DNA of 64,000 bases from Escherichia phage vB_EcoM-RPN242 (OL656110.1), one strand, 5' to 3'. Counted from the stretch's first letter, positions 44,865 through 63,207 are shown. Numbers and translations are program-made. The notes: a model not told the origin generated them from the sequence alone.

Positions 44865-44941
44865 GGTCCTGTAGCTCAGTGGTAAGTAGCAGTGAACTCA
44901 TAATTCATTGGTCGTTGGTTCAAATCCAACCAGGATCACCA
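44865..44941 (+). tRNA. tRNA with CAU anticodon (Met or Ile2)
   Basis: Hand-folded cloverleaf: acceptor GGTCCTG/CAGGATC, anticodon loop CTCATAA, T-arm GTTGG-TTCAAAT-CCAAC, encoded CCA. Confidence 0.75.
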
Positions 44942-45193: not shown

Positions 45194-45282
45194 GGAAGGT
45201 TGCCCGAGATGTTTAAGGGACTCGACTGCTAATCGAGTGGGGCTTTTAGCCCCCGAAGGTTCGAATCCTTCACCTTCCGCCA
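45194..45282 (+). tRNA. tRNA-Ser (GCU) with long variable arm
   Basis: Acceptor GGAAGGT/ACCTTCC, anticodon stem CTCGA/TCGAG with loop CTGCTAA, variable arm GGGGCTTTTAGCCCC, T-arm GAAGG-TTCGAAT-CCTTC, CCA. Confidence 0.75.
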
Positions 45283-58060: not shown

Positions 58061-58434
58061 AAATTCAAATCCCTCGCGATGCTGTGGCTGTTGCGATCGA
58101 CTACACCGGAAACGCCAAGCACATTACTGCCGTGCGCCTGATTCCTGAAAAGAACTGCGTCATCCCTCAGTTCCAGCTGAATGCCAATCCGTCGTCCAAA
58201 GACTTCGGAAAGTGGTTGCAGGCTGCTCCGTTCCGTACCCAGACGAACGCTCAGATGTTCATCTCGGGTAAGACCCACACTGCAGCCCGTCTGTGGTTCG
58301 TGACCGCTGACCGTCGCTTTGTCGATATGTGGGAACGTCCGATGGGGTTCGTGAAGCCGGAAGATATTCAGCTGGCTCCTGAGCCTGAAGCTGTGGCTCC
58401 TGAAGAGGAAGCGAAAGATGCATCATTTATCTAA
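58057..58434 (+). CDS. hypothetical protein, about 125 aa
   Basis: ATGA overlap with the upstream stop; track ORF 57922..58434 is over-extended. Confidence 0.45.
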   Translation: MKIQIPRDAVAVAIDYTGNAKHITAVRLIPEKNCVIPQFQLNANPSSKDFGKWLQAAPFRTQTNAQMFISGKTHTAARLWFVTADRRFVDMWERPMGFVKPEDIQLAPEPEAVAPEEEAKDASFI

Positions 58435-59644
58435 AATGCCGACGGGCTATACGCCTCCGGCTGAATGGAAGTACCCGATTGACCTGGCTGTTGATTATCG
58501 CAAGCCTGAGAATCGCATGTACTTGCTCAAGGCTTGGGTGGAGGCGCTGTCCTACACAGAAGAGCACAACCAGCAGATGCGTCTGATGGACTATGCGATC
58601 GAAGTCACTGAAGGCATCAGCCTCGAACAGAAAGTCGAGCGCAAGATCTGGATGGCATTCCTGTGGGGTTGTTGCTATAACGCCGTCGGGCCGTGGACGA
58701 TCTACAGTGAGTTCCCTGTGCCGCCTCAGTCTAAGGAAGAGATGCAGCGCTTCTCTGATTGGTATAATCTGAACTTTGAACGCATGCGATTCGATACCGA
58801 CTGTCGCTACCGCAAGTCCAAGATGATCCCGTGTGTTCAGTCCTATATTGACTGGCTGGCTGGCCGTACTCAATATGACGCTTTCCGTGGGATGTTGGTG
58901 TGCATCGATAAGACAGAACAATTCACCCAGCTGTGGGACACGGCGATGTCCTGGAAATACTTCGGTCGCCTGAGCGCCTGGAACTTCCTGGAAGCCCTGA
59001 ACATGGTATTCGGAAACGAATACACCATTGACGTCCCTGGCTTCATGCTGCGTGATCGTGATGGAAGCGAGTCCAACCGTAATGGCGCGGCGTTCTTGTC
59101 CAACCGTGACGATTGGGTGACTAAACACGGGAAGAAAAAGATCAACGGTTGTCCTATCACGGATGAAGAGTGTGACATCCTTGAGGCTGACCTTGAGCAG
59201 GCGTTCCAGGATTGTGTGGCTGAGTTCGGGCACCTGACGTTCATCAACCGTCTGAACTTTGAAACCTCCGGTGCTTGTTGGCTGAAGAAATTCTTCCGAC
59301 TGAAGAATACCCGTTACATCGGGTGGGACGCAGAGCGTACCTGGGATGAGATAGACTACATGGAACGCGTCTGGCCTGAATACTCCTGCGCAGCGCTCTG
59401 GGAAGCCCGTTCGCTCTGGCTGCCAGATACCCTGTTGTGCGAAAAGGCTCCTGCAGGGCACGTTCCAGGCGTCCAGAAGTGGAAGATGCCTGTGTTCTTT
59501 GAGACTGGTGTTCCTCTGCACATCTGGCATCTGCAAAAGGGTACGCGTTGGGAGCCTGACCAGGTGTATCGAGAATTGGGTAAACCGAAGATTGATAAAC
59601 CGAAGTCCAACAGCGTCAACCTCATGGCACTCTTGAAACGCTGA
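58418..59644 (+). CDS. hypothetical 408-aa protein, candidate base-modifying transferase by context
   Basis: GAGGAAG upstream; no motif recognised by eye; assignment rests on neighbourhood with the kinase only. Confidence 0.5.
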   Translation: MHHLSKMPTGYTPPAEWKYPIDLAVDYRKPENRMYLLKAWVEALSYTEEHNQQMRLMDYAIEVTEGISLEQKVERKIWMAFLWGCCYNAVGPWTIYSEFPVPPQSKEEMQRFSDWYNLNFERMRFDTDCRYRKSKMIPCVQSYIDWLAGRTQYDAFRGMLVCIDKTEQFTQLWDTAMSWKYFGRLSAWNFLEALNMVFGNEYTIDVPGFMLRDRDGSESNRNGAAFLSNRDDWVTKHGKKKINGCPITDEECDILEADLEQAFQDCVAEFGHLTFINRLNFETSGACWLKKFFRLKNTRYIGWDAERTWDEIDYMERVWPEYSCAALWEARSLWLPDTLLCEKAPAGHVPGVQKWKMPVFFETGVPLHIWHLQKGTRWEPDQVYRELGKPKIDKPKSNSVNLMALLKR

Positions 59645-59680
59645 TATAAATATCCTCGCCTATAAAGTGAGGATATTATC

Positions 59681-59848
59681 ATGTTACAAGATCTGCTGGT
59701 TTATGCGCTTCCTGGCGTGGTTGTCGGCTTCGTAGCTGGCGCTCTGGTATTCCGCAAACACGCGCAAGACGGTGAAGTGATTGTTCAGAAGGGTAAAGAC
59801 ATCCTGGAACAAATCGAAGCCAAACTGGAAGAGCTGAAGAAAAAGTAA
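59681..59848 (+). CDS. small membrane protein, 55 aa
   Basis: MLQDLLVYALPGVVVGFVAGALVFRK...; ribosome-binding site GAGGA lies inside an 8-bp inverted repeat ATATCCTC/GAGGATAT. Confidence 0.4.
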   Translation: MLQDLLVYALPGVVVGFVAGALVFRKHAQDGEVIVQKGKDILEQIEAKLEELKKK

Positions 59849-59875
59849 TCTGATTGCGATTGCGTTCTTCAATAA

Positions 59876-59916
59876 AGGGGAATGGGTTAATATTAGCCCG
59901 TTCCCCTTTCTTTTTG
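59876..59916 (+). terminator. rho-independent terminator
   Basis: AGGGGAATGGG...CCCGTTCCCCT followed by TTCTTTTTG; preceded by the TTCTTCAATAAA motif. Confidence 0.7.
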
Positions 59917-60143: not shown

Positions 60144-60526
60144 CACAGTCCGAATACAAACAGTACCTGTACGATCTGTTCATGAAAGAAACGGATGGTA
60201 CACTCCACCCTAAGAAAGCCACTATCGTCTTGCTGTATTCACAAGGTGCCCTGTCATTCTCCTATCTTTTCAAAGAATTGGATCTGATGGGCATTGAATA
60301 TAAAAAGCACATTACGCCAGAACGCACTCTGAAGCGCGCAATCGCTCACTGCGTCCACTCGGTGGCGACTGTTATGTTCCGCCATCACATTACATTCGAT
60401 GAAGCTCTTGACCCACAGTATCACGAAGAGCGTTGGGATCTGTTGTTAAAGAACGGTGCCAAGCCTGAGCACAAAGATCAACTCCTTGGGATGACCAAGG
60501 CGCAACTCGTGGATGGTGTGTTATGA
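60140..60526 (+). CDS. hypothetical protein, 128 aa
   Basis: ATGA overlap with the upstream stop. Confidence 0.5.
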   Translation: MTQSEYKQYLYDLFMKETDGTLHPKKATIVLLYSQGALSFSYLFKELDLMGIEYKKHITPERTLKRAIAHCVHSVATVMFRHHITFDEALDPQYHEERWDLLLKNGAKPEHKDQLLGMTKAQLVDGVL

Positions 60527-61635
60527 TCTATCTCCTGTTTGGTGTGCCATTGATACTGGCCATCCTGTTTGTGGTCTACCACCGCAAGACCCATGAGCCG
60601 AAAGAGACTCTGATTGCGACGGCGATTGTGGTGGTGCTATCCTGTCTGATTCAGGTCGGGGCTTATGCTGCGTTCTCCCTCGGCAGTTCAGGGGACGTTG
60701 AGATACTGAACGGGTACGTCACTGCAAAGGAACGGAATAAGGTGAGCTGTGAGCATTCATATGAATGTATGTGCTATTACACAACATCTTGTACAGGTTC
60801 AGGAAATAACCGATCTTGTACACAAACGCGTCATTGCAGCACATGCTATGAGCACTCTTATGACGTTGATTGGGATGTATTAACAACCGTCGGTGATCTG
60901 AGCATTGACCGTATTGATCGTCAGGGTACTACAGAGCCTCCGCGTTGGACACAAGTTAAAATCGGGGAACCTGCGGCACGTGAACATTCATATATGAATT
61001 ATGTGCTGGGTAACAAAGACTCTCTGTTCTCTCGTTCAGACCAGCAGTTTGCTGAGCGCTTCAAAGACAAGATTCCGAAGTATCCCGAAGTCTATGACTA
61101 CTATCGTGTCACTCGTGTACTGAATGTGTCTGGTCTGGCGTTACCGACCACATACTGGAACGATTATCTGAACAATACTCTGAAAACATTAGGTGCTTCA
61201 CGTCAGGTCAATATCGTCTGGGTTGTGACTTCCGGCCAGCCAGTTGAATACTTCCAGGGCTTGGTCTATGCTTGGGATGGTGGTAAAAAGAACGACGTTA
61301 TCGTCGTGACCGACATCAGCAAAGACCTGAAGATCAACTGGGGTAAGAGCACTTCGTTCGCTGATGGTATGCATAACCGTGAACTCCACTCTCGCAATGG
61401 TATGGCTCTCACAGGACACGACATGGGTGTCGGTGTCATGGCTGATGTTGTCGCTAACATCACCAAAGGCTACAACCGCGTTGAGATGAAGGAAATGGAG
61501 TACCTGAAGTGGCGGGAACTCAAGACCTGGGAAGTTGTGATTGTTGTTCTGCTAGGCTGTCTGCCGTTCACCGCAATTTTCATATTACAGCGAATGGAGT
61601 ACAATGGTGGTCGTCGTTATCCGTTTAATTTTTAA
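60523..61635 (+). CDS. Cys-rich integral membrane protein, 370 aa
   Basis: N- and C-terminal hydrophobic segments; Cys cluster CEHSYECMCYYTTSCTGSGNNRSCTQTRHCSTCYEHSY. Confidence 0.55.
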   Translation: MIYLLFGVPLILAILFVVYHRKTHEPKETLIATAIVVVLSCLIQVGAYAAFSLGSSGDVEILNGYVTAKERNKVSCEHSYECMCYYTTSCTGSGNNRSCTQTRHCSTCYEHSYDVDWDVLTTVGDLSIDRIDRQGTTEPPRWTQVKIGEPAAREHSYMNYVLGNKDSLFSRSDQQFAERFKDKIPKYPEVYDYYRVTRVLNVSGLALPTTYWNDYLNNTLKTLGASRQVNIVWVVTSGQPVEYFQGLVYAWDGGKKNDVIVVTDISKDLKINWGKSTSFADGMHNRELHSRNGMALTGHDMGVGVMADVVANITKGYNRVEMKEMEYLKWRELKTWEVVIVVLLGCLPFTAIFILQRMEYNGGRRYPFNF

Positions 61636-61653
61636 TCAAAAGAGGAAGTAAGA

Positions 61654-62223
61654 ATGTCTCAATCTAAGGGTATCGCAACAGGTTGGATAGTTGGTTTGGC
61701 TTTGCTGGGTATAGTGATTCTCGGCATCAGTACAGTCATCAGCTACTTCAACGACTTCAACCGCACTGAGCAGCAGGTCAAGAAGTTCAACAAAGACTCC
61801 GAGAACTACCTGAGCAACTACACGCTCAAAGTTCAGGAGACGGCGCAGATTCCTGACATGTATAAAGACGGCCTGAAGGAAGTGATCAAAGGCACGTTCG
61901 AAGGGCGTTATGGCGCTGATGGTTCCAAGGCCGTCATGCAGTGGATCCAGGAGCAGAATATTCAGTTCGATTCCAGCCTGTACAAAGAGATCCAGGTGGT
62001 GATCAGTTCTGGGCGTGATGAATTCCGCATCAGCCAGACCAAGAAGCTGGATATCTGCACAATATACGAAACCAAGCTGGCTCAGTTCCCTGGTTCGTTG
62101 ATTGCTGGCATGTTCGGCTACCCGCGCATCGACCTTGACAAGACCTGCCAAGTGGTGAGTGATACCCGTACCCAGGCCGCGTTCGACGCTGGTATTCAGA
62201 AACCGATTAACTTCAAAGGCTGA
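61654..62223 (+). CDS. LemA-family-like membrane protein
   Basis: N-terminal hydrophobic segment; C-terminal YETKLAQFPGSLIAGMFGYPRID resembles the LemA C-terminal motif; AAGAGGAAG upstream. Confidence 0.45.
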   Translation: MSQSKGIATGWIVGLALLGIVILGISTVISYFNDFNRTEQQVKKFNKDSENYLSNYTLKVQETAQIPDMYKDGLKEVIKGTFEGRYGADGSKAVMQWIQEQNIQFDSSLYKEIQVVISSGRDEFRISQTKKLDICTIYETKLAQFPGSLIAGMFGYPRIDLDKTCQVVSDTRTQAAFDAGIQKPINFKG

Positions 62224-62751: not shown

Positions 62752-63207
62752 ATGACTACCAAACCAACTTATGAAGAACTGGCGCAGACCGTTCTGACCT
62801 TTGACAGTACCCTGAAGAATCTTTACAAGGTGCTGGGAAATAACCCGACTTCAGAGTCAGGAGAAACAGTTAATCTTCTGTTACTGATGAACCCTCTGTG
62901 GGATATTGATACCACTGTTACTGCCCTGAAAGATCCTGGGGCACAGGAGCCGGAGCCAGCCCCTATATCCACTGGGATTCAGAAATACCTGGAGAACTTT
63001 GACGAGTACTCCTTCACCGATCTGCTCCTGCGTGATATGATCAACACAGAACGCCGTCGCCAGGGGAAGAACTGTCCTGTGGTCCAGTCTGATGAAGAAA
63101 TCGAGCAGAGTGTTCGAGAAGATCTGAACAGCACCTACTCGCCGATCGATCTGGCTGTAATGATTGTTCAGGCACTGTCCTATGCTGCCAAGGGGGAAAC
63201 AAAATGA
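62752..63207 (+). CDS. hypothetical acidic protein, 151 aa
   Basis: ORF with GGAG upstream. Confidence 0.5.
   Translation: MTTKPTYEELAQTVLTFDSTLKNLYKVLGNNPTSESGETVNLLLLMNPLWDIDTTVTALKDPGAQEPEPAPISTGIQKYLENFDEYSFTDLLLRDMINTERRRQGKNCPVVQSDEEIEQSVREDLNSTYSPIDLAVMIVQALSYAAKGETK

Follow-up and report, generated by a model that had tools for sequence, protein, structure and literature searches.

We asked what is encoded by two adjacent open reading frames (ORFs) of Escherichia phage vB_EcoM-RPN242 (OL656110.1), and what the pair might do during infection. The two ORFs lie at 60523–61635 and 61654–62223 of the 64,000-nucleotide stretch that was analysed (the window; all positions are counted from its first letter). 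The initial annotation had described a Cys-rich membrane protein of 370 residues, followed 18 nucleotides later by a 189-residue protein with LemA-like features. The coordinates, sizes and spacing proved correct: both ORFs are on the + strand and start with ATG, and the gap between them is 61636–61653. Each matches a PHROG family end to end (370-residue protein, phrog_2087, E 4e-164; 189-residue protein, phrog_1383, E 6e-86) and has hundreds of homologues, and the ratio of nonsynonymous to synonymous substitution rates (dN/dS), measured against Shigella phage Ag3 and Dickeya phage phiD3, is low (0.05–0.06 for the first gene, 0.04–0.13 for the second; the adjacent gene for an amino acid:DNA transferase, ADDT, is similar at 0.044). 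Both are therefore real genes under strong purifying selection and not chance ORFs. In bacteria, a LemA gene is followed at 0–15 nucleotides by a gene of the TPM family (PF04536) in each of the three lineages checked (Thermotoga, Neobacillus, Carboxydocella), in agreement with the earlier statement that bacterial LemA proteins pair with membrane partners. Because bacterial LemA genes adjoin TPM genes in this way, we are confident, as regards identity and architecture, that the phage pair is a divergent viral derivative of the bacterial LemA–TPM operon.

The assignment of the 189-residue protein (61654..62223, +) was made at the level of family profiles. Profile–profile comparison (hhalign) of its family with 29 bona fide PF04011 proteins gave a probability of 96.6–96.7% (P about 4e-10, 136–144 columns), whereas reversed and cross-family controls gave 1.7% or less. 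When a 41-sequence family profile was searched against PDB sequences, T. maritima LemA (2ETD) was the only significant match (E 7e-4; query residues 32–161 on chain residues 10–156). The LemA match spans from the end of the transmembrane helix to a common FP...FG[FY] motif; the LemA-homologous region (residues 24–161; 61723..62136, +) holds the C-terminal motif FPGSLIAGMFGYP (LemA: FPGVIFAKMFGFE), and the motif QFPGSLIAGMFGYP aligns with LemA KFPGVIFAKMFGFE in hhalign. The architecture is likewise that of LemA, with one N-terminal transmembrane helix (~residues 8–30) running on into a helical bundle that ends in an FP...FGF motif (AlphaFold2 model with predicted local distance difference test, pLDDT, of 83.7; helix 8–63, then the bundle). 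LemA was also the most frequent Pfam family when the homologues were scanned singly (9/41, best E 0.0016). A near-invariant GRYGxDGSKAxxQWIQEQN motif runs through the phage family and has no counterpart in bacterial LemA. Given the profile–profile probability relative to its controls and the single significant PDB match, the 189-residue protein is, as judged from sequence comparison, a divergent and remote member of the LemA superfamily with a subfamily of its own. A profile search of the representative set found, among the best 150 matches listed, close family members only and no bridge to LemA; it also brought up the fusion protein P0253, described below. Pfam, NCBIfam and PADLOC scans of both window proteins returned sub-threshold noise only (LemA, LeoBC, Spore_III_AF, DUF948); the weak PADLOC match to LeoBC (PDLC03841; residues 9–112, E 4e-4, 17.6 bits) covers the transmembrane segment and the first long helix of the 189-residue protein and is probably compositional.

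The partner (60523..61635, +) was identified chiefly by its fold. The AlphaFold2 model of the 370-residue protein (pLDDT 89.8) contains, in order, two transmembrane helices, a beta domain, an alpha/beta domain and a C-terminal transmembrane helix, so that the terminal hydrophobic segments previously noted are indeed present (~residues 1–20, 27–55 and 333–361). The first two (60523..60687, +; hydropathy and charge, with model helices at 2–20 and 26–55) are joined by a basic loop, YHRKTHEPKE, and the last (61519..61605, +; model and hydropathy) is followed by a short basic tail; loop and tail are both predicted to be cytoplasmic. Between the anchors, residues ~199–328 (61117..61506, +) adopt the TPM fold, a central four-stranded beta sheet with four flanking amphipathic helices, and carry the motif QVNIvwVvt...W-x-GGKKNDV, which corresponds to bacterial AQVvVvtV...WGIGxKxxNNGV. 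PF04536 was the commonest Pfam family among the homologues (12/45, all below threshold, best E 1.8e-4), always matching residues ~207–263 on model positions 11–76; the best singly scanned homologue scored 18.1 bits, against a gathering threshold of 22.1 bits. At the level of sequence, then, the support for TPM is suggestive and not conclusive. We conclude that the 370-residue protein is a TPM-fold domain set between membrane anchors, to which an extra Cys7His2 beta domain has been added.

One possible reading is that the TPM domain, with a putative Cys/His metal site, is a periplasmic enzyme. It would be a phosphatase or nucleotidase for the salvage of phosphate or nucleotides, or would modify a component of the envelope, and the LemA-like protein would be its membrane scaffold. 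Some TPM domains are reported to have phosphatase or ATPase/ADPase activity and to bind divalent metals (PMC11237479; bioRxiv 10.1101/2024.10.28.620569), the TPM motif of the phage protein holds invariant polar residues (K255, K256, N257, D258), and genes of nucleotide metabolism often lie nearby (guanylate kinase and ADDT for the window, ribonucleotide reductase and thymidylate synthase in Acinetobacter phage Ab_121, RNA ligase in Vibrio phage VPG01). However, TPM domains are weak as enzymes and their activity is disputed (PMC11237479), and the neighbours vary from phage to phage with only the pair conserved. We regard an enzyme as improbable.

How strictly the two genes keep together was examined across sequenced phages. 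By translated search (tblastn), 501 phage records carry the LemA-like gene and 487 its TPM-like partner, with closely matching counts by host genus (LemA/TPM: Salmonella 166/168, Escherichia 62/62, Klebsiella 54/55, Erwinia 29/29, Aeromonas 25/26, Acinetobacter 23/23, Serratia 22/22, Vibrio 22/22, Dickeya 19/19); Prevotella, with 15 records, appeared in the LemA list only. Carriers include Ackermannviridae, ICP1, and T5-like, T4-like and jumbo phages. Nine diverse loci were compared: the window, ICP1, Klebsiella jumbo phage K64-1, Acinetobacter Ab_121, Sinorhizobium phiM19, nucleus-forming Erwinia RAY, T5-like Vibrio VPG01, T4-like Aeromonas AsFcp_4 and Lak-B3. These two families were the only ones shared between the loci, no third conserved gene being found among the nine, and wherever both were present they were adjacent and co-oriented, TPM then LemA. 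The pair is thus a strict two-gene module across about 490 sequenced phages. In K64-1 (857–2733 of locus L003) the pair is preceded by envelope-related genes annotated 'toxic anion resistance protein' (TelA-like) and 'peptidase', an arrangement that none of the other phages showed.

A search of 185,579 species-representative genomes of prokaryotes yielded only 37 loci, most of them on contigs of metagenome-assembled genomes (MAGs). Long metagenomic contigs bearing the gene were phage-like (Gp23, terminase, DnaB). Both genes were present in 28 of the 37; the LemA-like gene lay immediately downstream in 24 of these (gap –26 to +58 nucleotides), two had overlapping ORF calls, one was unresolved, and one MAG contig (L023) had the bacterial order, LemA-like 356–910 then TPM-like 913–1995, 2 nucleotides apart and the reverse of all other phage loci. 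Two isolate assemblies carry a phage-type pair, Achromobacter anxifer LMG 26857 (L020, 487-kb contig) and Variovorax sp. WDL1 (L029, 282-kb contig); their neighbouring genes nearly all lack Pfam and PHROG matches (ORFan-rich), and the loci could be large uncharacterised prophages or other mobile elements. In the Achromobacter locus, a full-length RecA and an MscS-like fragment are encoded just upstream of the pair. On one phage-like metagenomic contig (L018, 1012–2673), a single ORF of 553 residues (P0253) encodes the TPM-like protein joined by a short acidic linker to the LemA-like one, and could be a true fusion or the product of a lost stop codon.

On which side of the membrane would the soluble domains lie? 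In the LemA-like family, the short N-terminal segment has a net charge of +2.4 and the 15 residues past the transmembrane helix one of –0.4; this charge bias predicts an N-in/C-out orientation. Beyond the helix, the family has either no Cys (129 sequences) or exactly two (100), zero or two together accounting for 229 of 234. Two columns, Cys135 (codon 62056–62058) and Cys165 (codon 62146–62148; the pair spans 62056..62148, +), hold both residues in 87 sequences, neither in 141 and one only in 6 (n = 234, counts not corrected for phylogeny). Such a both-or-none pair points to an oxidising compartment, where C135 and C165 would form a periplasmic disulfide. The TPM-like protein is basic in the loop between its first two transmembrane helices and in its C-terminal tail, and TPM domains are described as lumenal or extracytoplasmic (bioRxiv 10.1101/2024.10.28.620569). 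For the natural fusion to have a consistent topology, its two ectodomains must share one side of the membrane, the periplasmic one. From charge bias and the Cys pair we infer that both soluble domains are in the periplasm, with the loop and C-terminal tail of the TPM-like protein in the cytoplasm.

This topology bears on two of the roles that the initial annotation had proposed, lysis timing and superinfection exclusion. In lysis control, the pair would be an antiholin-like, spanin-like or lysis-timing component. The type-II membrane topology, helical periplasmic domain and conserved Cys pair give the 189-residue protein a superficial likeness to i-spanins, and a few homologues gave weak holin-family Pfam matches on their transmembrane helices (E 0.007–0.03). 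However, the holin matches cover hydrophobic segments only, the 189-residue protein is homologous to LemA and not to Rz, and endolysin and holin genes are absent among the conserved neighbours. There is also no o-spanin partner: neither neighbour has a lipobox, and within 61654–62223 no + strand ORF of at least 40 residues was found in another frame except the overlapping next gene, whose product lacks a signal peptide and lipobox. A function in lysis control is for these reasons quite remote.

In a superinfection-exclusion role, the periplasm-facing pair would block the entry of a secondary phage genome, like T4 Imm/Sp. An inner-membrane site with periplasmic domains fits an entry blocker, and the pair is encoded among non-structural genes near replication genes. 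The exclusion genes known so far are narrow in distribution and evolve fast, whereas this pair combines a low dN/dS (0.04–0.13) with 35–50% identity between phage families that are unrelated and eject their genomes with very different machinery. Its homology to a bacterial module that is ubiquitous and of housekeeping type also favours a target in the host over one in a phage. We therefore consider superinfection exclusion unlikely.

The strong purifying selection, the conservation across unrelated large virulent phages and the placement in non-structural regions lead us instead to a tentative role in membrane maintenance. Both would be non-virion proteins made during infection, anchored in the inner membrane of the host with periplasmic soluble domains and working as a complex. 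At the periplasmic face of that membrane they may form a stabilising or chaperone-like device that keeps the membrane or its protein complexes functional, or remodels these, while a large virulent phage replicates. This role is borrowed from those proposed for bacterial TPM and LemA proteins, namely membrane-complex assembly or repair and envelope stress. Two roles are discussed for TPM domains, that of a weak phosphatase and that of a chaperone-like factor for the assembly and repair of membrane complexes (PMC11237479; bioRxiv 10.1101/2024.10.28.620569), and membrane stress in F. columnare induces lemA together with a TPM gene (PMC13236525). By analogy with these systems, an inner-membrane complex maintaining or remodelling membranes during infection is a plausible candidate that we hold short of probable. 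Identity and function taken together, the derivation from the operon with a membrane-maintenance role is the best overall explanation, and its chance of being right is about even. The earlier view thus stands in part: the LemA-like membrane pair is real, and superinfection exclusion and lysis timing are retained only as lesser alternatives.

Between the membrane anchors and the TPM domain lies a virus-specific beta-rich ectodomain (residues 57–158; 60691..60996, +; strands 57–74, 80–91, 98–108, 114–128 and 150–158). It contains the dense Cys cluster that the initial annotation had noted, with seven Cys in residues 76–108, and the full Cys/His pattern is C76-x-H78-x3-C82-x-C84...C90...C99...C105-x2-C108-x2-H111 (60748..60855, +). 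C76, C82, C90, C99 and C108 are 93–99% conserved and H78 and H111 97%; seven Cys are present in 95 of 120 homologues and the order CHCCCCCCH in 96 of 120. C84 and C105 covary strictly (both in 101 homologues, neither in 19). The odd Cys count and the two conserved His suggest that the cluster is at least partly metal-ligating and not purely a disulfide knot. A Foldseek search with the beta domain gave no significant structural match. Nearly all its low-probability matches (about 0.2 or less, none significant) were to beta collars that form rings or to the stems of pores, namely the FliF MS ring, the pore of anthrax protective antigen, CDTb and V. cholerae cytolysin. These matches and the odd, near-invariant Cys/His set are the sole hints of a further arrangement, in which the beta hairpins would oligomerise into a ring or collar with a metal or redox centre, and TPM and LemA domains would serve as a membrane-proximal scaffold, the whole sealing, gating or reorganising the inner membrane after genome entry. 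We consider this distinctly improbable; if true, the ring or collar would be a previously unrecognised phage envelope organiser common to most large virulent phages of Gram-negative bacteria.

Several observations weigh against a LemA–TPM derivation or the membrane-maintenance role. The 189-residue protein reached only 13.7 bits with Pfam LemA (PF04011; E 0.055, partial match), short of the gathering threshold of 26.2 bits, and no precomputed Pfam domain is present in any of its 97 database homologues; its LemA-like features are thus supported by profile–profile comparison and the 2ETD match and missed by Pfam. Foldseek of its model against PDB did not single out 2ETD (rank 10, E 1.2, TM-scores 0.30/0.37), and Foldseek is commonly uninformative for helical bundles. 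For the 370-residue protein of the window, Pfam TPM gave no match at E ≤ 1, and its family profile gave none among PDB sequences. Its hhalign comparison with bacterial TPM partners was not significant (P 0.015 at full length and 0.007–0.009 for the domain only, with reversed controls at 0.35–0.45), the alignment being in register over 109 columns with a TPM profile of only 4 sequences. The phage gene order is the inverse of the bacterial one. Lak megaphages are the only lineage seen with a solo LemA-like gene: Lak-B3, a Prevotella phage, has a clear LemA-like gene (L014, 3327–3878; E 7e-41 to the phage family profile) and no TPM-like gene within 3.5 kb on either side, even with TAG read as sense. 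The phylogenetically uncorrected Cys counts temper the topology, and the proposed reading does not account for an odd number of Cys (seven) beside two conserved His in a domain placed in the periplasm. Finally, the functional reading is an analogy on an analogy, since the biochemical role of the bacterial LemA–TPM module is itself not established.

The surroundings of the pair speak to its expression and to its annotation. The start of the 370-residue gene overlaps the stop of an upstream 128-residue gene as ATGA; the spacer (61636..61653, +) carries a Shine–Dalgarno sequence, AAGAGGAAG, at 61640–61648; and the gene 3' of the pair begins 4 nucleotides past the stop of the 189-residue gene (true start ~62228, product MSVKLTES...), the ORF as called overlapping the last 65 nucleotides of the 189-residue gene (62159–62223). 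A hairpin scan found no terminator between the two genes, and a strong intrinsic-terminator-like hairpin with a 16-bp stem followed by a T run (59874..59909, +) marks the upstream boundary of the packed genes. Given the ATGA overlap, the 4-nucleotide gap, the upstream hairpin and the lack of a terminator between the genes, the pair is probably part of a tightly packed, polycistronic + strand gene string. In promoter scans, neither sigma-70-like sites nor the T4 late TATAAATA motif exceeded chance expectation, and so gave no guide to the timing of expression. The hairpin lies directly 3' of a gene for a 55-residue membrane protein (59681–59848), and the window's two TATAAATA motifs include one immediately before that gene (59645–59652).

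The phage belongs to the Ackermannviridae (ViI/Ag3-like), and the pair region is 91% identical to Shigella phage MK-13 and ~90% identical to Ag3. In Ag3 the counterparts, gp208/gp209, follow the genes for DNA polymerase, guanylate kinase and a homologue of amino-acid:DNA transferases, and lie at a great distance from the genes of morphogenesis. This position bears on the label 'virion structural protein' that is attached to phrog_1383 and to many RefSeq records, and by which the protein would be a structural or ejected virion component. The label could not be traced to data in the Ag3, LIMEstone1, phiD3 or RAY papers. In the proteomes of these relatives, the homologue of the 189-residue protein is not among 39 LIMEstone1 virion proteins, six Ag3 bands or the RAY/Deimos-Minion mass-spectrometry table; the phiD3 virion analysis identified too few proteins to inform. 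It is an integral membrane protein with a cellular membrane protein as its homologue, and its gene stands apart from those for morphogenesis; a place in the virion is scarcely credible.

Other features of the window were noted alongside the pair. A 408-residue protein (58418–59644, +) matches Pfam ADDT (PF18724) at E 4e-60, with a weak aGPT-Pplase3 match; it belongs to the thymidine-hypermodification enzyme family expected in ViI-like phages, and two short membrane-protein genes flank ADDT in the Ag3 annotation. A functional link between the pair and this gene was considered and rejected, other phages having different neighbours. Downstream, a 151-residue protein (62752–63207, +) matches DUF7181 end to end (E 1e-63). 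The window also has two tRNA genes on the + strand, tRNA-Met (CAT) and tRNA-Ser (GCT), at 44865–44941 and 45194–45282.

Literature searches on LemA or TPM together with phage gave no characterisation of such a pair, as the initial annotation had supposed. The LemA resemblance is not wholly new, because a few records are automatically annotated 'LemA family protein' or 'lemA protein'. What is new here is the TPM-fold partner, and with it the derivation from the bacterial operon; the strict pairing in about 490 phages; and the virus-specific Cys7His2 domain, the periplasmic topology signals and the natural fusion. A new conserved periplasmic Cys/His domain is thereby identified, and the widely propagated 'virion structural protein' annotation, which looks unfounded, is corrected. 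LemA and TPM proteins are very widespread in bacteria, and neither has an agreed biochemical function. A constrained viral version in about 500 virulent phages, including the tractable ICP1 and Ackermannviridae, offers a compact system for probing what the module does, as the stress of infection is sharp and measurable. If the module is important for phage fitness, it would point to an envelope-maintenance step common to large phages.

Direct orthologues with the same order and spacing occur in Aeromonas phage Aeh1 (p307/p306), ICP1 (2017DRC106_0195/0190), Erwinia phage RAY (gp45/gp46) and Klebsiella phage K64-1 (gp217/gp218); none is characterised, their annotations being hypothetical or 'virion structural protein'. 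Among cellular proteins, MamQ of magnetotactic bacteria is a LemA-family single-pass membrane protein needed for magnetosome membrane formation and implicated in membrane remodelling; it has no TPM partner and acts in a cellular context different from that of the phage LemA-like protein. The TPM-domain proteins TLP18.3, Psb32, LMTP1, BA41-BA42 and cg2496 are 12–16% identical to the phage TPM domain and all lack the Cys/His beta domain, and nothing in a phage obviously corresponds to their known roles in photosystem II repair, in association with respiratory complexes or as weak phosphatases. Bacterial TPM partners consist of a signal peptide, the TPM domain, a transmembrane helix and a Gly-rich tail. 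Unlike these, the phage protein has two N-terminal transmembrane helices in place of the signal peptide, adds the ~100-residue Cys7His2 beta domain and lacks the Gly-rich C-terminal tail; apart from gene order, the phage sequences further differ from the operon in lying below Pfam thresholds. Like the bacterial LemA–TPM operon (e.g. Thermotoga TM0961, PDB 2ETD, with its downstream neighbour), the phage locus is a two-gene, co-oriented and tightly spaced unit, in which one gene encodes a single-pass protein whose helical domain is homologous to LemA and includes the FP...FG[FY] motif, the second encodes a TPM fold with a transmembrane anchor and a short tail after it, and both soluble domains are predicted to be extracytoplasmic.

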